From Podarcis gaigeae (Eukaryota), in NCBI GenBank assembly GCA_964106915.2, contig OZ066914.1: 64,000 bases of DNA; one strand, 5' to 3'. Each line of letters begins with the position of its first letter. Position 1 is the stretch's first letter. Below, one piece after another: positions 13,383 to 63,188 of the stretch. The translations under genes and the position numbers were made by a program. Under the pieces are notes generated by a model. That model was not told the origin of the DNA. It made no database searches and saw only the letters and a program-made list of their open reading frames with translations.

Positions 13383-16300
13383 AAGTTGACCAAGGTGCTT
13401 TAAAGACCTTTTGTTTACATATTTTTCTTAAATATTAAGTTCCTTTGCATTAACAGATAAGTCCTCAGGACAAAGACTGAACTAGCAAGTGATGCTAGGA
13501 TCCCACTCTAGTTATCCTTTTATATCTAATTGTTCTAGAATGTGTATGGTTAGAGACATGTGAACTACTACAATGTGGCAAATGCTTCTACAGTTTCTTT
13601 GAAGTTTTCTTCCCCTGTGAAAGAGGCTTCCATTTTTCTGTCTCATTCTCAGGGCACTAGAAAAATAATTTCTTTTGAATTTTGGTGGGTATTGAGATTT
13701 TGAGCTAACTTTATTATTGCAAGGTAGCGGAGGTTGGTACGTGTAAACCTTTCTGTAGCACTCTGGAATCTCCCCAGCTGCCTGTGCTTCCTAATCTGAA
13801 AAAGGCTCATGGGAGGAGTTATCTCATAATGTCTTCTCCTGAGCTTTAACTGAAGCATGGACACCCAGGAAGGCTGCTGGAGTGCAGACACCACTGGTGA
13901 GATGATTTGTGGAATGAAAAAAAGGACACCTAAAAATATCCCTTGGCCACTGCAAAAGTAAGGTGAGTACAGTGAAAACACGGCACCCAAACAATAATAC
14001 TTTCACAGATATGTTCCATCTGATCTGATAATTTTCACATGTAATTTATTTTCTCAATAACTGATGGGAAGGATAAAGCTGATTAGCCATATCTGGTCAT
14101 TCAATACACATGGCACCAGTTGTGCGGAGTGGGAGAGGACTGCTGTGCAGAACTTCCCCTGTCGTTATGTCCTCAACAGCCCATTCCCTGTTGTCCATGC
14201 GGTGGGAATAATGCCTGCAGAGGGGATGCTCATAGGCTCCCCGCCCCCAATTTTTGGTTCTAGCTCATGGAGGGGGCATATGTGCAATGAGCAAACTTTA
14301 AACATGCTCACCAACATGCAGGCAGACAGCAGGAGGGAGGTCCTGACTGAGTTGGGATGGTAGGGCCAGGGCCAGTAGGTTTGGCTCTGCTCTCCTGCTC
14401 CACACCATTATAATTGCCCAAACAAGGCAACTGGATGCTGACTTTAAAAAACACACACATGAAAATGTTTTGGATGGAGGTGCCTGTTTAATGTTTGTAA
14501 AGGTTAAAATATTATGCACAATTTGGATTATTATCAATTTTTTCTTCTTAAATACATGTACTGCTATACAGAATGCTAAAAAGCAGATGGAGTCATGCTG
14601 CTTTACACCAGAAGGGGATATGGGCTTATCCATTTAATTTCTATGAGCTTATCTAGGCTTTCCCACAAATAAAATGATACACATTACCTAGACATGTCAA
14701 GGTATAATATCCAGTCCTCAGAACTGTTAAACGAATTAGATTCATTAAAAGATGCAGCAACAGTGTAAGGAAGCACATTTATGCAACATTTCAATCATGG
14801 GACCACTAAGGGCTCTTCTGCAACGGAGACATCTTGCTCTCAGAGCAAAAACAATACAGAACTTTAGAGTGGCCACAGAGCATAAAGGCACTGACGACTG
14901 AAATAAAAACACAGTTCATTATTTTTTACAACTTTTATTATGTTTACTGCAGGGTGCCATCCAATTGAACTCATTAATTCAGCAATTATATTGGAAAGGG
15001 GGAAAAGGCCTTAGGCTTTGAGTTGCATCCAAACTGCCTACTAAGAATGCCTTTACTTCTACCCGGCAGTTCTTAAAGAGAGAGCGAGGCACAGAGAAAG
15101 GCAGCACATTCACAAAGGATCTCACACAAAAAGAAGGGGAGAGAGAAGGAAGAGAGAATATGGTGGAAAGGAAAGAAAAGGATCCCATTAAGTCCCTTCC
15201 ACCACTCTTTACTGCCCTGACTGCTGTTGCATCAGGGTTGCACTACTCAGTTTTCACACTTCAAAATGGCAAGGACCATATCACCATCTCCAGTTAAGAG
15301 ATCTTCTCGGATCAAAATTTAATCTAGAGCTCATGATTATTTCACTCTGTGCCTTAACCAATATAAGATCATTTCAGCAGCCAAGAAAGCAGCAATCTGG
15401 AACGTAGTAGAAAATGCTGTGCAAATTATGGAGGATTATTTTGCACTAAAAGGGAATCTCTGGAGAAATGTTCACAGGCAAAGTACCCCAAAAAGGCATT
15501 TAGTCCTATGTAATTCTTCAATGACATTTTTGTTAAAATTACTTTGGGTCTAATGCAATTGAGAAAACACATTATTTCTGAATGGCTACTGTATTTCCTG
15601 TGTAGCCCTTTCCGAACTGTTGTAGAAACTTCCATCCCTACACCAGCTTTCACCTCCTACTGTATGAGTTACTTCCTACCAAAGAAAGTTAGCAAGGGCA
15701 GCAGTTCACTGTGACTTTGAACAATATATGAAGTCGAGACACTGCTTAAGTTTTCAAGGCTGTTTGCTCTATTGACCCCAAAGAGAGACACAGGGTCCAG
15801 TGTAAGTTAGATTGCTTGAAAAAGCTATTCACTAAAACCTATGGAAAGGAGTATGTTAAATACATGAAGAATTGGATGTTGGTTTTCCTTTTTAAGACTT
15901 TTCCTATGAAGTGAGGGTGGAGAGGAATGCACCGAGGGACTGAAAAAAAAATTATGCACTGGGTTTTGTTTTCTTAAAAATCCTTATCAGACAAACAAAG
16001 CAACCCATTTGTTTTCTTGAGCTCCTGCAGTTTCCTAAATCAGGAGTAGCTAACCATTATCAGGCTGTGGACTGCACTGGCCAATGCTCAACACCCGGGG
16101 GACAACGTGTCCAAATGTAAAAATGGCCAATTGATTTTTTATAGAGTCAAATTCTGGGGAATCTTTGGGTGAGGTCACAAAGGTCTTTTGCCATGAGAGA
16201 ATCAGAGTGTAAAGAGCAGCCAGCAACTTTAAAAGAATTAATGAGACTTTTCTCTTTTTGAGTGGGGTGGGGAGGGGGTGGGAATTTGAAGCCACAACAA

Positions 16301-19796: not shown

Positions 19797-20004
19797 CTTG
19801 CAATTTCCTGCGATGGAAGCGTGGCGATCCCAGGAAGCTGTTCTTGATCGAGTTGAGCCGTGTTCTCCAGGGCATTCCTCCAATGCTGGGGCTGGATGGT
19901 GGCGTAGGGTTGGGTGTGCCTGCTGGGCTCTCCTTTGGCGTATGGACAGGTGTCCCCTTGGGGGTAGGGAGGGGACTGCCCCTTGGAGAGGGGTGAGGGG
20001 TGAC
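19797..20004 (-). CDS. BRSK2: BRSK2 exon (208 nt): [69 protein letters not shown](V)
   Basis: catacag|GTCACC...TTGCAAG|gtacat; phase 0 to 1. Confidence 0.97.
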
Positions 20005-20409
20005 CTGTATGATGGGGATAGATTTGGTGCTTGGGTCAGTACTAGAAGGGAGCAATCTAACAGGAGACATAGGGTTGGTTTGCACGGTAGGAACAGCCAG
20101 CTGCGGGCTAAACCCAGGAGCAGGTGGACGGCCCTGAGTGTTCTGTGCAGGAGAATTTGGGGAAGGTGGGACTGTAGCATTGCTAGAGGGCAGGGGATTG
20201 GATTTGGTAGACTGGAGTGGTTTTTCAGCCAATCTACACTTGGATGGCAAAGTCTGTGTCTTTGGATTGGGTTGAAGTGCCGGCTTTGGCTGGAGAACAT
20301 GTCCGGGCCTGGAAGCATTCCTACAAGCATCGGAGTCCAGGGAGACTTGGGGGCGGGGAGTGAAAGGGAGGTCAGGAGTCTGAGGGGGGATGAAAAATTT
20401 TCTGATAGG
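20005..20409 (-). CDS. BRSK2: In-frame 5' extension (405 nt, 135 aa, Pro-rich) of the next exon via an alternative 3' splice site
   Basis: gtatcttgtag|CCTATCAGAAAATTT...; reads [15 protein letters not shown]...TKSIPIIQ with no stop into VTPHPSPRG; phase 0. Confidence 0.75.
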
Positions 20410-22869
20410 CTACAAGATACACACAGAGAAAGTACCCATGCATTTCAAGAAAAGCAAAACGCACACGCACATACGCACAAAGTGGGTGAATAGAGAAATA
20501 AAGCCCATTTGAGTTGCGGTTGTGAGCCACATCACAAGGAGATCAGAGTTATGGAGGTGAGGGTGAAGGAGGTGGGGGGTTAGGGAATTGCAAAGAAACA
20601 AAAAACAAACACAAACAAAAAACAAAAAGACATGCAGTTAGCTGGGAACACAGCATAGTCAACAACAGCAGCAGTGGCGGTAGTGAAAACAACAGTTTTG
20701 TCACAAGCTTCATCATATTAACCAACCATGTGTCAGCAAATAAAAAAACCACAGAGCAAAAACTAACATGAAGGAAAAGAAAGTAAGAAACTAAAAGGGT
20801 GGGCGAGGGAGGGGAAGCAGCAAGAGAGAGCGAGACAGAGCGAGAGAGAAAAGGCCGTACCCCTGAGCTGTTCTGACTGTCTCACAGATAGAGAGAGAGA
20901 GAACAGGGCTGAAGGGAGGTGGGGAAGGGGAAGGAAGCATCATTCAAGCCACAGGGGAACCTGACATGTAAGCATGTAAGGCTGAGTGTGCCCTCTCTCC
21001 CAGCTCAAAACGTCTACCACAATCAAAAACAGCAAGGAAATGCAGATCAAAATAACATGTGTGCAGCAGGTAATGATAGAAGCACACAGATTACTACACA
21101 CATTGACTCTCCTCAGTCAAAGCACCACAAGTTTCAGTAACATGGAGAGAGGGTGTGAGTGAGGCTGAGGAGGGGGAAAGCCTCTATCATTTCACCACCA
21201 TTCCTTCCTGGCCTTCCACCCAGAGGGACCCAGTTTTCTCTGGCAGGCTTTACTATATGAAATCTTAACAGCTCATGGAACCATGGGCCAGTTTGGGCTT
21301 CAAATTTTAAGAGATCGTGGAACTACAGCCACTTTAGGGTTTAATTAAAATACCCCAAGGGTCACCAAAGAAGATTTGCTTTCTAAGTGCCCCTATTACA
21401 TCTAAGTCCTCCCTTCATCAGACAGTCTTATACTTTTAAAAAAACATAAGAGAAAAACATTCCTCAGTTTTTATGACACAGTACCAGAATTCCATTCTGT
21501 GGCTGATCATTGTGCTTTATGCAGTAAACATACAAAACACACAATTCATAATCAGCCATAAATGAAGTCAGAAAAGGGGATTATGTTGTTTTGTAAAACA
21601 ACAACAAAACTTAATTAGCAAGTGTTAGATTCAAGAACAGTCCAAGAAAAACTTTAAAATAGAAATTCAATACACCCAGGGAACAAAATGCAAAAAAGAA
21701 CACTGTTAGAAGAAAAGATTTTTTTTAAAATAGAGAACATATTCCTTTCATAGAGCATGGATTAGAAAAAAAGTAACAATAAAATTGTATTTACTGTTCA
21801 TTTGTGAATGAGTGCAAGCCCATTAGAAGAATTCACAAATATGTAACAATGTATTGCCCTGCAGTTTGGGCAATTAACTTACATAAGAAGTGAAAATTGC
21901 ATAAAACTGTGATAATTGCATATAACTGTATGTAAGAACAGAAGCTGAATTGACTAAGAACAGAAGAAATGTAAATGAACTGGTTCCCTGTCTGCATCAT
22001 GTGTGTCTGTGTGTAATTGTTTGCGTAACAGAGGGTGGGGGAACGTGTGCATGCCTGTAGGTGTAGTGAGGATAGATGCTGTTTGTGTGTGTGTTGTGTA
22101 TGGTGGTGAGTGTGCATGTGTGGAATGTATGTCTGTGGTGTGTGCATGTAGAAATATGCATTGGCCACACCCATTATTGGCATGTATCCCTTAGAGAAGT
22201 ACCTGACTTTCAGTACTACCTTTGAGCCAACGTTATTTTAGCCACCCGTGAATTAAAACATATATTTAGACAAGCTACTGCCTGTTTTTTTTAAAAAAAA
22301 GAACCAATCAAGCTTTGGCTTGCCCAAGGACTAACAAAAAAGGGCCTGTTCAAGCAGACTCTCTAAGACTGCGCAATTTCTTACTTCTTTGGAATGATTC
22401 TCTTTCTGCCCCTCAAATCCAAGCGACTTTCAGCTTCCTTACTGGAACATCCTAATCCAACTCTGTATGATTCTTGTTCAGACTAGAGTTCATTGTTTTT
22501 CCAGCGTTCTTCAGCTGTGCTATTCAGTCCCAAAGTAGCTCTAGCTGTTATGGTTCAGTGCCTCACCATGGGCTTGCAATAAGCAGCAGATGTTTTCTTC
22601 ATCGTATGAAAAACTCTCTTAACAGGGTTATATACATTGGCATCATGCTAGGCCACAATGATACCTTAGGTGGCAATGATGCCAGAAGCACAGGCAGCCC
22701 TGCAGAAGGACCCTATCCCAACATTCACAAACAGCAAGCTGTGCTTTATAGCTGCCCCACATCCCTAGCTAACTAAGCCACCCTTCAAAATGGGGAAAGA
22801 GATATTAAATGTCACTGAGCTCACATGAGAGAGTAGTTATAAACCATGACCCCAAATAATCCCACTTAC

Positions 22870-22930
22870 CCTTGGACTGCTGAGTGGGCTGGTCGACAGG
22901 CCAGAGGAAGCTCCACTGATTGAGCGAGAC
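22870..22930 (-). CDS. BRSK2: BRSK2 exon (61 nt): SRSISGASSGLSTSPLSSPR
   Basis: tttactcag|GTCTCGC...CCAAGG|gtaagt; phase 2 to 0. Confidence 0.97.
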
Positions 22931-25276: not shown

Positions 25277-27437
25277 CTGGGAGATTTGGTTCAGCCTATG
25301 ATGGGAGGCAGCAAATATCAGCGCACTAGCTGTGTTTTCCTCATTGCCATGGCAGCAGGGATGCCTCCCTGAATTATCATGAGAACAAGGATCACACACA
25401 GCTTAGGGGGCACTTTTAAAAGACTGGGGAGTGGCTGGCCAAGGATGATCCTCCCGTGGGTTCCAGAGGGAGTGCTGTAGATGTCCCCTCTCTTTGAACC
25501 CCCCCTTCTCAAGGCTGCTTATTTGTTGGAAGACCCTGAGGCCTGCATGCCTCACTCCACCAATGTGGGGATCAGCATGAGAAAGAATGAACCAAAGGCA
25601 CAGAGGGCAGAGAGGGATAGAGATACATGGTGAGAGGAGAGTTATATGCTATGCTATTTATCAGCCAGGAAATTGGTTGTAGGCCTTTAGTGAATAAACT
25701 ACAGTTTTATTAATCTAGTTTTAAAGCTTGCAGCTATAAAGAAAATGTTACACTTAAATACGTCAAAGCTTGTTTATAAAGAATAACCTCCAAACTGAAC
25801 CTAGAAGCATCCTTGTAGTTCAATGCCTTAAAGGAAATGAAAATAAGAAGTGGGGTTTTGTAGGTCTTACACTCCTGTCAGTATCACCTTTGCAGGTTAA
25901 GAAAACAGAGCACCCTAGCCACATTATTTAAAATTTCTGAAGGAAGGTTCTTTGGTGCTGTTCTTCACCCATCAGCCATCAGCAAAGAAACCAGGGGTCA
26001 GCTCCTTCTCATGAAACTGGCCCAGAGCACTGAGAATTCAGACTCAAGCAAAGACAGAGATTGTGCACTGGGTAGCAATATGGATTCTCCTTTTGGGGAA
26101 GCTCCATAGACATTATCACCAGCATGAGTAACACGAGTAGTCATACTGGGAGGACAAAAATAAGGAATTGTGACACCTTACTTTGCTGAAAGGGTTTTTT
26201 TATCTATGGATTTGAAAGACAATTATTTAACAGGAAACATCCATTTGCATATAATCTTCACAGAATCTTTGGAGGAATTAAAGTGAGTCTTGTCTCTCAT
26301 TATTCTGGTCGGGTAAATTTCTTACAATTGGTCATACATTGAGCAGGTATCTTCTTTTGAGGGTTGAACATATTTTGGACACTCCTCTCCACCCCTAATG
26401 AGTGACACAGTGTGTTGTGAACATTTTATTACCATGAGTTTGTAAGAGCAGTATGCTAGAAGATCATCATGGCAATGATGAGGCAATCCTGGCTCCATCT
26501 GTAAGCCAAAGAAGGAGCAGCTGCAAGGAGTTTGTCTTTCCCCCTCCCATGAATGAAAAACCTGCTCCAACTGCCAGGAACTCGGGGCTGCAGAATCAAA
26601 AAGAGCCACTCTCTGCCCTCTTCCACCAGTCAAGGCAATCCTTGCCTCCCAGGAAGGGAGGGAAGAGATCAGCCTGACCCCATACACTGGCCAATGAAAG
26701 AGCAGCTGCTCCAAAGTTTGCTTTCCTCTTTCCTTCCCATCTTTTTTCTTTTATATTATGTCTATATGATTGAAACCTGTGGACCGGGACTACAAGATCT
26801 TTTATTAAATTTCAGGCCCTAAACAACAACAATAATAACAGCAACAACAACAACAAGAACTCTGAATATGTGTCTGTTAGAAATCATAGCAGAATATCTG
26901 AAACATGTTTGATCCTGCTTCACAGTAAAACTATTTTAGAAACTGGAAACATTTTTCACACCTGTAAAGGGAAAGGCCGTAGAAAGACCATGAATCATGG
27001 AATGTAAACAGACATGTGACACGCAACAGTTCCACACGTCTGCCCCTTAAGGTGGAATGGAAATGTCAACACCTCTTCATCAGCCTGCCACATTCCTGTG
27101 TCTCACAGTTCCCCTTATGATGAACTATAGGCAGTTTAGTTTGTTAACTGGGCAACCAAATCTCTCCTGATGTGATTGATTTTTTAAAAAATGCTTTAAA
27201 TGATCTAACTGCACCGAAGTGATTATTTCTCTCAGGATTCAAAACAAACAAACAAAAACCTGTCAGCCCCCCTCCAATAAAACAAAAAAAGCAAACTGGT
27301 CAAATATGACCTTCAGGGTTTTGTTTTTGCTTAAGAAAGTGGATGGTTGGGGTCTTTCTGCTTCTATAATCTGTCATTCCCCAGGAAAGCAACACAACAT
27401 GACAGAAGCATGAGTACCAATTCAACAGTAATAAAAA

Positions 27438-27575
27438 NNNNNNNNNNNNNNNNNNNNNNNNNNNNNNNNNNNNNNNNNNNNNNNNNNNNNNNNNNNNNNN
27501 NNNNNNNNNNNNNNNNNNNNNNNNNNNNNNNNNNNNNNNNNNNNNNNNNNNNNNNNNNNNNNNNNNNNNNNNNNN
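27438..27575. other. Assembly gap (N run)
   Basis: Ns. Confidence 1.
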
Positions 27576-30500
27576 CCCCAGACAGGGCTCTTGTGCCTTT
27601 GACACAGCTTAATAAATAGAAATTCAACAGGAAAAGCATTGCCTATTTTGTATCTCCATGCCAGAAAAAATAGCACCTGACAAATTTATGCTACTTTTTG
27701 TTCTTCTTGAGTTTGTTAGAGGTAGAAAGGCCATGCCACAGCAGATTGCAGAAATTCTACTCAGGAATATGAGTAGGTTATGCTTGTGGATGTATCATGA
27801 GGATAGGGTTTGAGAATTCTAGTCAGGAGGTTCCATTCAGACTGGGGGCCCTTTCATGTACATTTTTAACAGTGCCTCTGGGCTCTTTTAAAATTCTGAA
27901 AGTTGCCTGCTCAGTTTCATCATAGGGGATCAGTAGTCATGTTCCAAGTTGTGGAAAAATGTAAAATGCTAGTAGTTTTCAGCAGGAGGAGAGAAAGGTG
28001 TCAACATTCATGCCTTCTAGTGCTTGCTTAAGTAGAGGCTGGTGAGAGGGTGACTCAGATAAGAGAATGGGACTATATATTTCACTGCAGGACCCTCTTT
28101 ATGGATGTTTCACGTTCTAAAATTTTGCATGTGCACACACATACATACACACATACAATATTCATGCCAGTGGGGTTTTGTGTCATTTGGTACAGCGCTC
28201 CTTTTCTTCAGAAGGTGCTTAGATATTGGAAGCAGAGTCAGGATGATTAGACAATAGTGGAAGCAATGCATCCACAGAGACATATTGGTTTTGCTGTCAC
28301 TGTGACTAAATAGGTGACAGAAAATTCACCACCATGGAATCCTGAAGCCAACTGAGCCGACCAAACACCTGCTCTGAAACTGCAGCAGCTCCTTCTATCA
28401 AATTCCACATTTCAGCCGTCATTTAAGCACATCCCACACCATGAAGACAATAAGGAGCTGCATACGAACTGGGGCCAGTTTGTTGATTAAATAATTTTAT
28501 GTCCCTCCCTTCCTCCCAATACGGTGCACAGGGCAGCTTACAACAACCACATAGGCCATTCTGAGGCTGCAGTACCTTTTACCCAACCACAAAGGATGGC
28601 TGCACTTGGAACACAACAACCCTGTGTGTAAGTTCAATACAGCCTAATGGAGACGAGAAGGAACTGTTGTTACTGTGGTTGGCCTGATGCGGACTTTTCT
28701 GCCCAGCTGCTTGTTATGTAAGTGTGAGCACTGGAGATAGCAGCAAGAGATGGAGGCAGTTGGCTCCACTCTCTGCTGGCTCCCCTTGAGTCTCTGTTGA
28801 TAGAGCACAGAAGCAGGATGACACCAGCACCATGACCATGGCTATAAAGGTCTTTCTTTGCAGTTCAACCGCCAGGGGGCTTTTCTTGGTTAGACATTAT
28901 GCACAAAGCCATCAAAAGTCATATAAATATGAATTCATACCACAGGGAGGCTTCCCCATAGAACCTTGTGGCTTGACAACAGGTTGGGGAGGGACCTGTG
29001 GTCCTCCAGATGCTACTGGATTACAAATACCATCAGTCACACACCCTTCCATACACCCACCCACCCCATCCTACATGGCATACATTACATTTTAGGCTAT
29101 GCCCTCAGTGTAAGGATGAGGTAGTTTTGTCAGTGGGCCAAGCAAGACATTTTTTAAAAAGAATGTAAAAGCAGCTGGGGGGAGGGGGCTGAGAATAACT
29201 CTTCCCTCCTGCACTATTATCCTGGTCTAAGATGCTATATGTTCTTTGAGGGGAAAATATAGGTTCCAATATAGTATTTGTAAGTGTTCCCCCACCGGAC
29301 CAATAGCAGCTGGGAGGATTTTAGTTGGGAAGATGATAGGAGGGGGAAAAGGTTAACTGCTCTTCCCTACCACAGTGACCTTGATTCAGTTCAGCTCCCT
29401 TCCCCAAGCTGGTTTTAATATTTACCTTTTCAAGAACAAATGTAAAAGAAAAAAAATTATAGGAGATCTGATCACAGTTGCCAAGATGTCATATTGAGAT
29501 TTGCCCTCACTATGTACTAGGACTCTAAGATGCATGTGAAGTCAGGGCAAGCATTTTCTCCCCCTCCCTAACAAACGCACACACAAACATTGTTGTATAA
29601 TTTTTTTTCCTCCTGTAAGTTTTCCCCCCTGTAACACAGTTTCATGATAAATAATATTTATACTGTGATCATTAAAAGAAACTTCTCTACCCAGAAGAAA
29701 ACAACAGGTCCCACAACAGGTATAATCCAAAACTGGAGCTTACCCCAATGCGTCAGCACTTGTCATCCTTGGCAGTGGGGAATAAATAGAGGAGAAGGAG
29801 AGAGAAAGAAAGGGACGTGGAAGCAGGTGGAGAAAAGAGTACGAAAAGCAGAGTGAAATACTGTTCGGAGAACTACATGGTCATAATTATTGCCACAGGC
29901 ATCTGCTGCTGATGGAAGCACCAGTGGGGAATTATGCATGGGAAGGGGGAAGTTGTCATTTCCTAAACAAATATTTCCATATAGCTCATAATGATAGAAG
30001 AAGTTTGCATCTGGGATTATGGGGGCAGACACATCAAGTGTAAATGTGAAAAATAAAACATTGCTTGCCCACCCTCATTAAGCCAGTCTGTGGAGTTAGC
30101 AGTCCAGATCTGATTTGCGGTTGTTTTTATTTATGGCAAATAATCAGATTTTGCACAGTGGGCCGTACTGAAAAGGATGTGGATCTTCCTCCATTTTGCT
30201 CATGTAACATTCTCCTGCCCAGTGATGTCCAGCTAGGAATATCCTTTTCCAAAGTGTGTATCTATACTTTATATGTAGTGTTAAATGCACTGATAATTAA
30301 GACCAATATTTCTGAGTGGGTATGAGGCTCGGATGAACAAAGCTGCAAGTGAAGGATGTAACTCACTGGGAGTTTCTCCTGTTCTGCTGAAATGTAAAAA
30401 ATATATATATGTATTGCCTTTCATGGCTGCTATTCATCTGAGTGAGACTCATGTAGAAATCCTGAGTAGGTTGTGTTCAAAGTTGCAATTCTACTTTAAT

Positions 30501-32095: not shown

Positions 32096-32552
32096 TAACC
32101 CCCCCTCTCCAATTCCTATGGGCTGTTCTGATGGTTCTCCCTCCCCCCAACAATTTGGGGAGAGTGCAGGGAAAATCACTTCTGCACAAGCAGAAGTCCT
32201 TGTGCAGAGCTTCCACCGACAGAGTTCCTTGGATGAATCCCATCCAATGTCCCCAATACTATTTAACAACTACCGTAGATACAGCCACTGGGAGCAGCCA
32301 TTAGGAGATTTGAAGCAATTGGTCACCAATATGCAGATGATGCAGAGCTCTGTTTCACTGTAACATCTGGGTCAGGCAAGGATGTGAATTTTCTGAACCA
32401 GTGTCTGGCCACAGTAATGGAATAAACTGAGAATGACTCCTGGGAAGACAGAAACCCTATACAGTAGATAGGTCTTTCTCATGGTCAAGAAATTAGACGT
32501 CTGCTTGTTCTGGATGTGTTTGCATTTCCTCCACCGGAGTAGGTACATAGTA

Positions 32553-33080
32553 CAGTGGTGCCTCGCAAGACGAAATTAATTCGTTCCGCAAGTCTTTTCG
32601 TCTTGCGAGTTTTTCGTCTTGTGAAGCACGGTTTCCCATAGGAATGCATTGAAAATCAATCAATGCGTTCCTATGGAAACCACCTTCAGACCAGGTCCAG
32701 GGACAGTCTGTCCCCCGACCTCTTCTGAAGGCCGGCGGGGGGCGAAAGTCTTTGCTTCCACCCCGCCTGCCTTCCCGGGACAGCGGAGACTTCTCCGCTG
32801 TCCCGGGCGATCTTAAAATGCTGTCCGGGAGAGCGGAGAATCGCAGCGCATTTCTCCGCTCTCCCGGGAAGGCAGGCAGGGGGGAGCAAAGACTTTCGCC
32901 CCCCGCCGGCCTTCAGAAGAGGTCCAGGACCTCTTCTGAAGGCCGGCGGGGGGCGAAAGTCTTTGCTCCCCCCCGCCTGCCTTCAAAAGCCATCCGGGAG
33001 AGCGGAGAATCGCAGCGCGTTTCTCCGCTCTCCCGGGAAGGCAGGCAGGGGGGAGGCATTCGTCTTGCGGGGCACCACTG
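32553..33080. mobile_element. Tc1/mariner (Tigger/pogo-like) non-autonomous element, young, GC-rich, nested in a LINE
   Basis: TIRs CAGTGGTGCCTCGCAAGACGAA / TTCGTCTTGCGGGGCACCACTG; TA on both flanks; many intact CpGs. Confidence 0.9.
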
Positions 33081-36000
33081 TATCCTAGATCAATCTTTGT
33101 CAATAGAGACCAAAGTGACTACTGTGGCACATAGTGTTCACTACCAACTTTGGTTGGTGTGACAGCGATAGTGGTCCATGGTGTAGCATGTTGTTTGGGG
33201 TGCTGCTCTTAAACTTGGTTTGGAAGCTGCAGCTTGTGCAGAATATTGTGGCTGGAGTACTGAGTGTCTAGGTATGTACACCAGTGCTTGAAGATCTGCA
33301 CCAGGTGGCTATCTACTATCGAGCCGAATTCAAAGTTTTATTATTAACATGTAAAGCCCTAAACAACTTGGGACCAGTATACCTAGATGACCACCTCCCC
33401 TGTTATAGGCCAAATCATCCTTTACAATAACCAGGCCCTGTTCACTGTAGGATGGTCAGTGGATTGCCAGCTGGAAACCATTTGGAAACAGGTCTCTTCA
33501 GTTATAGCACTAACCCTCTGTCCCCCACAGGAGAGATAGAAGAAGCTCAATCTCAGTTGTCCTACTCAGGCGTATTTGGATGCTTGAGAACGTTATCCTG
33601 TTCAGACTTGCTGTTTAAATGATTGTCTTATTAACAATGCATTCATTGCAATTTGTTGTATTTTGATGTCCTAATTTTTGTAAACCACTTAGGGATTTTG
33701 CCAAAAATGTAAAATAAATAAAACACTCAACTCTGCTCCATTTCATAAATGATATTGCCATTTGGATAGATGTCCTTTCAATCAGATTTGAGGTGTTACT
33801 AGAAGGTCCAGCAGACACATATTTCTAACTTATTTACACCCATACGCATTATTCTTTGTGTATCCCTTGTATACCTTCCATCTTTGTGAAGTTCTGGTGA
33901 ATATTATTGATGTAGAGAAGGAATATATTAAACTTATAAACCCACATTTTAATATATAAAAGGCCACATTTTGTTGTCAGATTTAGCAATATAGATATTT
34001 TTACAATTGATGTTCCCAAGTACATTATCTGGTTATCTGGATGTGCATGTAAATCAATGTGCAAGTGACTGCACATAACACATACACAAATGCTGAGAAA
34101 GTAAACAGAATTTGTGTGTGTGTTTATATCAATGTGGACACATAAATGCTATTAATCTTTAGTTTTCCCAGAAAGGGAAAGGCACTTAGGAGTTTAACGA
34201 TGAGTATGGACATCACATTGACAATGGGGAAAGAAAGTTGGGAAATGAGGTTATTTAAACAAAAATAATAATCCCAGAACACAATAAACCCAGCAGCGCA
34301 GACATGTGCATTTCCTACAGTACTGAAGCATGTGAACTACGGAGCTGCAGCAACCCAGATGTAGAAGAAGCACTGAGGGACAGGGCAACAGATGAGAGAC
34401 ACAGAAAGAGAGAAAGATAAAGAGAAAGACTATAAAGACTAGAAGAGAGAGAGAGAGAGATTGAGAGAGAAAAAATGGAGGGAGAGAGGGAGGGAAAGAA
34501 ACAGTGGCCTCAGCTACCAAGACAACTGTGTGCATCTAGAGGGGCAGGATCCTTAAAGATGCAGTATTCCTTTTAAAATAAACCAAGAGTGAGAGAAATA
34601 TTAAGACATTGACCAGGCACCATTTCAAATGTGTGATTTGTTATCCCAACAAGGAAATATTTTGATGGGGTTTTCTTTGTTGCACTTCTTTTCTGCTCCT
34701 GTACTTGGACCTATATTTTCTCATCTTCCCATAACCTTTTCCTCAGTGTACATAAAAAAGACCTAACCCATAAAATTTTAGAAATCCCCCTTTCCCCTTT
34801 GTGGATCACACATGCCCCTCCCCTCCATTTTCTTCATCCTTTCGTAGATCAGAAAATTGCCACTTTGGGTCAGAGTTAAGATTGTGCTGTTTGTAACTGA
34901 TTTCTGCAATGGCTTTCAAATCATAATTATTTCTATAGGTGGGAGTACAGTGGCCATATATTCGTCTCATACAAAAGGTTATGGAGATTGGTTGATCTTT
35001 TCTGTGGATTTGCATTTGCTAAACTATTCTTACAACTGGTTTATCTTCAACTTGTGATGCTGCATGTCCTACTTCAACAAACTTTTCTAAGAAATAGTTG
35101 AGACTTGTGGTGAGTTGTGATCTGTTTACGAATTGAGCCATTCCCAAAAATTGTTCAGCTCATGCATACGCACTGTAAAAGTCCATTTGTATTGACTTCA
35201 AGATGTGAAATGGAGCCTACTTTTGTCAGTTCTTCCAGGAAGGACCAGAACTGGAAATGTTACTCCTGTCACTAATAAAATATTGATGCATTTATAGAGG
35301 TCTCCGCCTCCTAAGCATTCCATGTGCTTCACAAACACTGTCTCAACAATGCTCAACATATAAAATAGGCCAGCATTACATTTCCCCTGTTACAGAACCA
35401 GTTCAAAACTAAGAGAGGCTGCTGTAGCAAAGTGAGACTTGTCTGTTTTTCAAAATAAAATAAAAAACATCAGTGCAGGCACCCATTCTGGGGAAATGGT
35501 AAGTTGGCTGAGACTTGTGTAACTACAGGAGAAAAAAGGTTAAGGTGGGTTGAATGATGGGTGGGAAGATCTAGTAAAACCTTTTTTTTTCCCTTAAGGG
35601 AAATGCATCAAAAGCCACTGTCGTGATAAGGAAGGGGGAAATGGCCAAGGCTGGGCTATCATCCTGATCTGTCTGGCAAGAACTTTGACAGGGCTAACAA
35701 GACGTGGTTAGGTTTTCAGAACCCCATCCCACAACCGTCACTCCAGGCTGAGATTTGTATCAAGGCTCTGGCTCCCGCAACAGAGCTTGGGGACTCCCTG
35801 ACGAGCACTGCACAAGACAGCAGCTCATTATTTTCCCCCAGCTTGTGAACTTTTTATGAGTTCCTGGCAGCTTGGCTGCAATGCTCTCTTCCTGCAGGCC
35901 CTCATAAAAATGAGTGCCTTGTATGCTGTGCCAGAATCAGACCATCCATCTGCTGACAGGCAGAGTTCCCTCTATCTGCAGCTTCTAAATGAGAAACCTG

Positions 36001-38115: not shown

Positions 38116-38181
38116 CTTTCTTCTTTGTTGAATTTGGGATTGGCGTCACAGATATCCAGGCTTTTACTGAACATTGTTTTA
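38116..38181 (-). CDS. BRSK2: BRSK2 cassette exon (66 nt): (S)KTMFSKSLDICDANPKFNKEE(R)
   Basis: cctgccatag|TAAAACAATG...GAAAG|gtataa; symmetric phase 2-2; resembles the optional SKAMFSKSLDIAEAHPQFSKEDR insert I recall from mammalian BRSK2 isoforms. Confidence 0.88.
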
Positions 38182-46890: not shown

Positions 46891-46975
46891 ATACTGATGT
46901 TGAGTATTATTATTACTACTACTGGTAGTAGTTGTAGCAGTATCTGCCAGAATTGCATCAGCTCCTAGTAACCCT

Positions 46976-47252
46976 NNNNNNNNNNNNNNNNNNNNNNNNN
47001 NNNNNNNNNNNNNNNNNNNNNNNNNNNNNNNNNNNNNNNNNNNNNNNNNNNNNNNNNNNNNNNNNNNNNNNNNNNNNNNNNNNNNNNNNNNNNNNNNNNN
47101 NNNNNNNNNNNNNNNNNNNNNNNNNNNNNNNNNNNNNNNNNNNNNNNNNNNNNNNNNNNNNNNNNNNNNNNNNNNNNNNNNNNNNNNNNNNNNNNNNNNN
47201 NNNNNNNNNNNNNNNNNNNNNNNNNNNNNNNNNNNNNNNNNNNNNNNNNNNN
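46976..47252. other. Assembly gap (N run)
   Basis: Ns. Confidence 1.
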
Positions 47253-47557
47253 GGTGGCAAGTCTGATTTAACACAAGGAAGTTCTTTTACATCTCAATCT
47301 GCTGAAAAATTATTATTGGCTCATCTTAATATACATGGCCCATGCACCAGGGTAACATTATGCCACAGACCCTATTTAACAAATGAGTAGAAAAGAAGAT
47401 CTTCCATGGCTGCTGCAGGGAAAAGAAATGCTGCATGTAGCAAAGTTTGTCTTTTAACAGAAACCTGTAATAGCTAAATAAATCATGCCTTCCATGGTTT
47501 TTGGTGACTGTTCCCATATACCCATCAAGCCTATGTTAAGCAAACACTGAATGCTTA

Positions 47558-62633: not shown

Positions 62634-63188
62634 GAATAATAATACCTTTATTGTCATTGTACAACCTGTGTACACTGAAATTAAACGAACCTCCCTCCCT
62701 TGTGATGTCATCTAGCGGACTCAAGGGACATAGAATTCTATGATTCTATGACCCTCGTGATGTCATCTAGCGGACTCAAGGGACAGCCCATGATATCATG
62801 TGCTGTGTTCACCACCCTCTGTAGAGACTTTCTGTCTGTGGCTGTCAAGCCAGCATACCACACTGTGATACAATATGAAAGGACACTTTCTATTGTGGAA
62901 CGGTAAAAGGAGTTCATCAATTGTTGTTTAACATTATTCTTTCGCAAGACCCTGAGGAAATGAAGTCTCTGTTGGGCCTTTCTGACCACCTGAGTTATGT
63001 TGATTTTCCAAGTGAAGTCCTCACTAAGGTAAACTCCCAGGAATTTAAAGGAGGAGACTCTCTCCACATAGCCACCCCCACCCCCCGATATACAACGGGG
63101 CAGGTTCCCCTCTCTTTTTCCAGAAGTCCAACACCATCTCCTTTGTCTTACTAATATTTAGGTGCAAGTTATTCTCTAAGCACCATGT
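62634..63188 (-). mobile_element. Rex1/Babar-type LINE fragment (RT C-terminus and 3' end, internally deleted)
   Basis: WCLENNLHLNISKTKEMVLDF, then ERVSSFKFLGV...KAQQRLHFLRVL...FYRSTIESVLSYCITVWY; 3' end CAATGACAATAAA plus (ATT)n. Confidence 0.85.

Follow-up and report, generated by a model that had tools for sequence, protein, structure and literature searches.

A predicted alternative 3′ splice site of BRSK2, its conservation among jawed vertebrates and the candidate docking motifs that it adds

Tissue-regulated alternative segments, which add short motifs to the disordered linkers of kinases, form a known class of splice variation. In the calcineurin substrates of the NFAT type, the PxIxIT motif adjoins repeats of S/T-P sites. 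For the kinase considered here, Lilley et al. (2013) reportedly described that proline-directed phosphorylation of the C-terminal region of SAD-A restrains SAD-A activation. BRSK2 (SAD-A) is an autism-linked brain kinase encoded by a neurodevelopmental-disorder gene. Its canonical form, represented by the rat Swiss-Prot entry D3ZML2, the mouse construct of PMC4686854 and human NM_001256627.2, has the kinase, UBA, AIS and KA1 domains in common with the long form described below. The canonical form uses the downstream of two acceptors and thus lacks the insert, and a PxIxIT match is absent in the rat protein scanned. The AIS of mouse SAD-A covers residues 519–530, and two open questions are raised for the protein in the available text: the role of the linker between the UBA and the AIS, and the partner proteins which lift the autoinhibition (PMC4686854). 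The numbering in the cited BRSK2 papers follows the short form. As regards splicing, Brsk2 is found among the Qki-regulated targets, the event not being named in the accessible sections of that work (PMC6429586). The BRSK2 splicing event in the available part of 10.1101/2025.03.02.641068 concerns exon 19, which is a different event from the one considered here.

The BRSK2 insert resembles the tissue-regulated linker segments in being in-frame, of low complexity and provided with conserved motif islands. It differs from them in that a 405-nt extension at an alternative 3′ site is unusually long and appears to have been kept since the jawed-vertebrate ancestor. Long BRSK2 isoforms are already predicted for Podarcis muralis (X1, XP_028590336.2), chicken (X1, XP_040556784.1), zebrafish (X1, XP_017209738.1) and Pongo abelii (X1, XP_054380063.1), a presence in automated isoform predictions which the initial annotation of the locus had considered possible. 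These RefSeq/Ensembl isoforms, which are automated models only, have the same insert and the same junctions, with 96% identity in P. muralis. Because the isoform already stands in automated annotation, its discovery here is a limited surprise. A literature search covering mainly papers outside subscription found none which describes or tests the long BRSK2 isoform, and it is apparently uncharacterised.

Architecture of the two-acceptor exon

The analysed stretch of DNA, referred to as the window, comprises 64,000 nucleotides of the lizard Podarcis gaigeae. The gene it contains is identified as the lizard BRSK2/SAD-A kinase gene, because in tblastn with P. muralis isoform X6 the BRSK2 exons align in series on the minus strand, and the long exon matches that of P. 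muralis at 97.5%. The kinase domain, the BRSK UBA and the BRSK KA1 are all encoded, and the exons match those of BRSK2 orthologues. The upstream exon (22870..22930, minus strand), placed by sequence and tblastn, ends in phase 0 with the donor CCAAGG/GTAAGT at 22870/22869. It is followed by two in-phase acceptors, which share this upstream donor and one common downstream donor, the layout of an alternative 3′ splice site. The downstream, short-form acceptor (ATACAG/GTC) opens a shared exon of 208 nt (19797..20004, minus strand), as indicated by the sequence and by the short forms among the homologues. When the upstream acceptor is chosen, an extension of 405 nt (20005..20409, minus strand) enters the mRNA and the exon reaches 613 nt. 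The upstream acceptor AG lies at 20410..20411 on the minus strand (TCTTGTAG/CCT) and matches the junction in the Podarcis RefSeq models.

The minus-strand translation of the extension gives 135 codons without a stop, and the frame continues uninterrupted into the shared exon; homologues carry the same insert. The codon preceding the insert is an in-frame TAG, and its last two letters are the acceptor AG. The initial description of the stretch, as an in-frame extension behind a good acceptor with a phase that fits the preceding exon, is thus borne out by the translation, the TAG acceptor and the phase-0 donor. The offset is also visible in the protein, where the AIS starts at K654 in the long Podarcis form and at K519 in mouse (available text of PMC4686854), a difference of 135. 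At the minus-strand stop frequency in the window (0.051 per triplet), the chance of 135 open codons is P ~0.0008. The conservation of the protein, as judged from the homologues, is much stronger evidence for the insert than these odds. The plus strand over 20005–20409 is likewise an open frame, which was put down to the coding sequence on the opposite strand. The alternative acceptor is almost certainly real and conserved, and the use of either site in P. gaigeae itself rests on the predicted models of its relatives.

The region ahead of the upstream acceptor has a distinctive anatomy. Pyrimidines make up 68% of 240 nt here, and the region contains an AG-exclusion zone of 230 nt with a U/UG-rich tract (20412..20641, minus strand). 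Among the 4398 AG-free runs counted on this strand of the window the zone is the longest, the next one being 130 nt. Within the zone, two CTAAC motifs, presumably branch-point-like, are located at 20641 (the zone start) and 20583. The hexamer TGCATG, which we take to be an RBFOX-type element, occurs at 20636 and 20442; with 37 copies on the whole strand, two within 250 nt have a post hoc probability of P ~0.01. A remote branch point and RBFOX-type elements may control the choice of the upstream site, if these putative motifs are functional. In those homologues whose insert follows on something other than the upstream exon, Gln stands immediately ahead of the insert in 13 of 16 rows, or in 7 of 10 once one cluster is collapsed; the remaining rows have Ser, Leu or Lys. 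The Gln fits a conserved CAG acceptor in these homologues.

Long and short forms among the vertebrates

A search with the insert returned matches at E<=0.001 in 62 of 262 candidates, including named BRSK2 isoforms of species from sharks to a bat. A profile search gave 284 matches among 8000 scored proteins, from which the distribution was drawn on the best 120 of 284; with the upstream linker as query, 2701 matches were obtained, the best 120 of 2701 being used. In total 471 proteins were compared: 289 carry the full insert, 126 have the two flanks joined directly, a further 16 models are partial or odd, and in 40 a flank is missing, the ratio of long to short forms reflecting the design of the searches. 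The full inserts comprise 124 distinct sequences of 101–162 aa. The distribution was read from predicted proteins throughout, which speaks for a rival view, that the stretch is intronic sequence open by chance or an artefact of annotation. Such an origin is highly improbable, as the inserts are 41–96% identical over their whole length from teleosts to lizards, the boundaries are identical in all 289 models and the acceptor region is distinctive. RefSeq models usually rest on RNA-seq alignments.

Among the fishes, predicted long forms are present in sharks, rays, sturgeons, bichir, gar, bowfin and many teleosts. Among the tetrapods outside mammals, they are predicted in frogs, salamanders, a caecilian, lizards, a snake, a turtle and birds. 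The mammals with predicted long isoforms include koala, tenrec, bats, camelids, rhinoceros, ass, cattle and sheep, as well as cats, seal, wild dog, muroid rodents, ground squirrels, rabbit and both orangutans. The initial annotation had proposed an old long isoform, restricted to non-mammalian vertebrates and lost in mammals. Its age finds support in the inserts of sharks and rays, and the insert has probably been kept since the common ancestor of the jawed vertebrates. The restriction does not hold, since intact inserts extend from koala to the orangutans, and the loss in mammals was rejected on the full inserts of 108–136 aa in many mammalian predicted isoforms.

Short models are found in rays, bichir, frogs, turtles, crocodilians and birds, and therefore both splice choices appear to be old. 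Both forms occur in predicted models of 12 species; 14 name groups were checked, one of which was long only and one pair of which spanned two species. All 3 Podarcis proteins compared are long, and Pogona provides the only lizard short form compared. Outside the orangutans, the short form accounts for 30 of 30 primate proteins in which both flanks are present (3 odd gorilla models excluded) and for 3 of 3 from rat, and the matches listed include no long form from human or mouse. These counts speak against a wide use of the long form in placentals.

Such a pattern might also arise if the long exon were ancestral and constitutive and the short form were produced by an internal acceptor, the long form being now minor or decaying in placentals and perhaps unused in humans and mice. 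The placental inserts are indeed shorter (108–123 aa) and about 50% identical to that of the lizard, and the short form prevails in most primate and all rat models compared. The short models from rays to birds speak against it, since they make both choices old, and the placental inserts retain the conserved blocks and an intact frame; decay of an ancestral constitutive exon is an unlikely account of the locus.

The related kinase BRSK1 enters the comparison in two ways. The central block of the insert may resemble the BRSK1 linker. Six database entries named BRSK1 group with the BRSK2 long forms by sequence or cluster and are likely mislabelled. A 50%-representative search with the insert returned 11 matches, all BRSK2-like and none BRSK1. 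In the parts of the paper supplements that were accessible, including 14 files of PMC11964447, neither a BRSK1 alignment nor peptides were found.

Conserved motifs of the insert and their candidate partners

The 135 residues of the Podarcis insert include 30 Pro, 16 Ser and 11 Thr, with 6 S/T-P and 7 PxxP instances. Across the 124 inserts, conservation is concentrated in islands at residues 1–9, 49–57, 63–74, 102–107, 116–119 and 129–135, and the length of the insert drifts from 101 to 162 aa. The N-terminal block, P-x-R-[KR]-F-x-x-P-P (residues 1–9; 20383..20409, minus strand), emerged from the insert comparison. The motif [KR]-T-[QH]-T-[LF]-P (residues 50–55; 20245..20262, minus strand) is present in 124 of 124 inserts. 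The second block, K-P-L-Q-x-T-[KR]-S-N-P-L-P (residues 63–74; 20188..20223, minus strand), is matched by pattern in 119 of 124; its Ser70 and Pro72 are invariant and S-x-P is found in all 124. An LxVP-like sequence, L-A-V-P (residues 104–107; 20089..20100, minus strand), is partly conserved in the same comparison, and Lx[VI]P occurs somewhere in 86 of 124 inserts.

The extra S/T-P and SH3-ligand sites which had been proposed at first are present in the peptide, although none of them is invariant. Individual S/T-P sites persist in 1 to 89 of the 124 inserts and the seven PxxP instances in 2 to 87, so that no conserved PxxP core of an SH3 ligand was found among them. Such sites were rejected as the conserved core; S/T-x-P motifs are nearly invariant instead, at Thr53, Ser70 and Ser130 (124, 124 and 123 of 124 inserts, respectively).

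The insert belongs to no Pfam family, its two PDB matches (E 0.57 and 0.9) are not meaningful, and the search against Atlas gave no match. An AlphaFold2 model of the long protein, built with 50 sequences, had a mean pLDDT of 41, with the insert region as coil of low pLDDT. The model is uninformative on disorder, because even the kinase domain lies below pLDDT 50. The insert would work through short motifs rather than through a fold. Considered by itself, the claim that it is a motif-based docking module is likely. The fuller reading, in which the conserved splice insert is an optional docking module of the UBA–AIS linker with calcineurin and 14-3-3 as the leading candidates, is somewhat favoured.

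The first candidate partner is suggested by the junction. The last four residues of the insert, read together with the two codons that open the shared exon, form a PxIxIT-type motif, P-I-I-Q/V-T (19999..20016, minus strand). A calcineurin pattern, P[^PG][FILV][^PG][FILV][^PG], is given in the accessible part of 10.1101/632547, and the junction agrees with it in 106 of 124 inserts, among them all 29 of the placental type. The pattern is broken in the other 18, all of them from teleosts. A side observation concerns one percomorph fish group, in which the match is lost and the central blocks of the insert are kept. Two fish-type proteins keep the motif and perhaps represent the other teleost paralogue. 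A near-strict PxIxIT pattern has a single match, located at the junction, in both of the 2 long proteins scanned and none in the 2 short ones scanned. The published looser pattern has a second match inside the insert of the long Podarcis protein and none in the short Pogona protein. In 20000 shuffles, the strict match arose in 2.5% and the loose pattern in 37%, and the available text of 10.1101/632547 counts 21,791 human matches to the PxIxIT pattern, most of which are expected not to bind. Moreover, the Gln of the motif is forced by the CAG acceptor and V-T comes from the shared exon, so only the P and the I/V test selection at the level of the protein. A literature search made mainly among papers outside subscription found none combining BRSK2, calcineurin and PxIxIT.

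The first 45 residues of the shared exon contain 10 S/T-P sites. The long form thus shares with NFAT-type substrates, which carry PxIxIT and LxVP sites, a match to the PxIxIT pattern in a low-complexity region beside many S/T-P sites. Unlike in those substrates, the BRSK2 motif is assembled by the splice choice, and its LxVP-like site is partly conserved. In the proposed mechanism, the choice of the upstream acceptor alone would complete a candidate calcineurin PxIxIT site just ahead of the 10 S/T-P sites. Calcineurin is put forward only tentatively as the true partner of the long form.

The second candidate is suggested by Thr53, which has a basic residue at −3 and a Pro at +2 in 124 of 124 inserts. 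A basic residue at −3/−4 and a Pro at +2 are typical features of 14-3-3 sites in the accessible sections of PMC3205853, and only Thr53 combines the two, there being no basic residue at these positions ahead of Ser70 or Ser130. The long form might thereby also gain a 14-3-3 site at phospho-Thr53, and 14-3-3 is named as a partner with the same reserve as calcineurin. With both sites, the long kinase would be switchable by calcium and phosphorylation, unlike the standard form.

Two further explanations address the same conserved blocks. The TQT sequence is an anchor of the dynein light chain LC8, whose binding pattern is [^P].[KR].TQT. The T-Q-T block could bind LC8 or another hub, dimerising or localising the long form, and the likenesses to calcineurin and 14-3-3 sites would then be incidental. 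The exact TQT is present in 119 of 124 inserts; against this stand the five with THT, the Pro two residues ahead of the first Thr in most, and the absence of the LC8 pattern from all 124. The LC8 (DYNLL) consensus was rejected on this count, and the hub explanation as a whole is quite improbable.

Alternatively, the insert might be spliced in and act mainly in cis, as a longer tether between kinase-UBA and AIS-KA1 or through binding of the central block to the kinase's own domains, and thus tune autoinhibition with no need of outside partners. Its position in the UBA–AIS linker, the role of which is called an open question in the available part of PMC4686854, agrees with this, as does the variation in its length. 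The near invariance of residues 50–57 and 63–74 in the 124 inserts is unexpected of a pure spacer, and action mainly in cis is rated as unlikely. An optional linker segment of such deep conservation, for which candidate motifs can be named, opens both the function of the linker and the partners that release autoinhibition to direct tests.

The human gene and further optional segments

A patient variant, c.1288-2A>G (NM_001256627.2), is listed in two columns of a clinical table with a predicted out-of-frame skipping, and Table S2 gives SpliceAI scores of 0.94 for acceptor loss and 0.08 for acceptor gain, without positions, in the accessible part of the source (PMC13743746). Codon 430, from which Pro434 is four residues away, agrees with the beginning of the shared exon (Val431 in rat), and skipping of this 208-nt exon is out of frame. 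For these two reasons, the variant probably lies at the short-form acceptor. It might force the long isoform. The low gain score does not favour such a switch, the scan window being unstated in the available text of that work. If humans use the upstream acceptor as the orangutan models do, about 366 nt upstream of c.1288 would be coding, which are now scored as deep intronic, and c.1288-2A>G could act by an isoform switch instead of a loss. The most far-reaching version of the proposal, by which the splice choice has built a calcineurin docking site since the jawed-vertebrate ancestor and created a calcium-switchable SAD kinase, with the choice also open in humans and c.1288-2A>G forcing the long isoform, is doubtful.

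The window holds further optional sequences of the gene. A 24-nt in-frame microexon with AG/GTAAG borders (29744–29767, minus strand) matches an extra peptide of a gecko BRSK2 isoform. A 36-nt in-frame exon (14688–14723, minus strand) lies just ahead of the exon encoding the AIS and corresponds to another extra peptide of that isoform; it could affect the docking of the AIS. A 66-nt cassette exon of the same linker (38116–38181, minus strand) is present in some isoforms and absent from others. As read from these matches, the BRSK2 linker is predicted to contain at least four optional segments.

Outside the exons, a GC-richer repetitive stretch of an intron extends over ~32500–33150, where each strand has open frames in which the same short peptides recur. 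Two runs of N fall within introns, at ~27400–27550 and 46975–47255. An open frame of 139 codons at 62741–63157 on the minus strand may be the tail of a retroelement reverse transcriptase.
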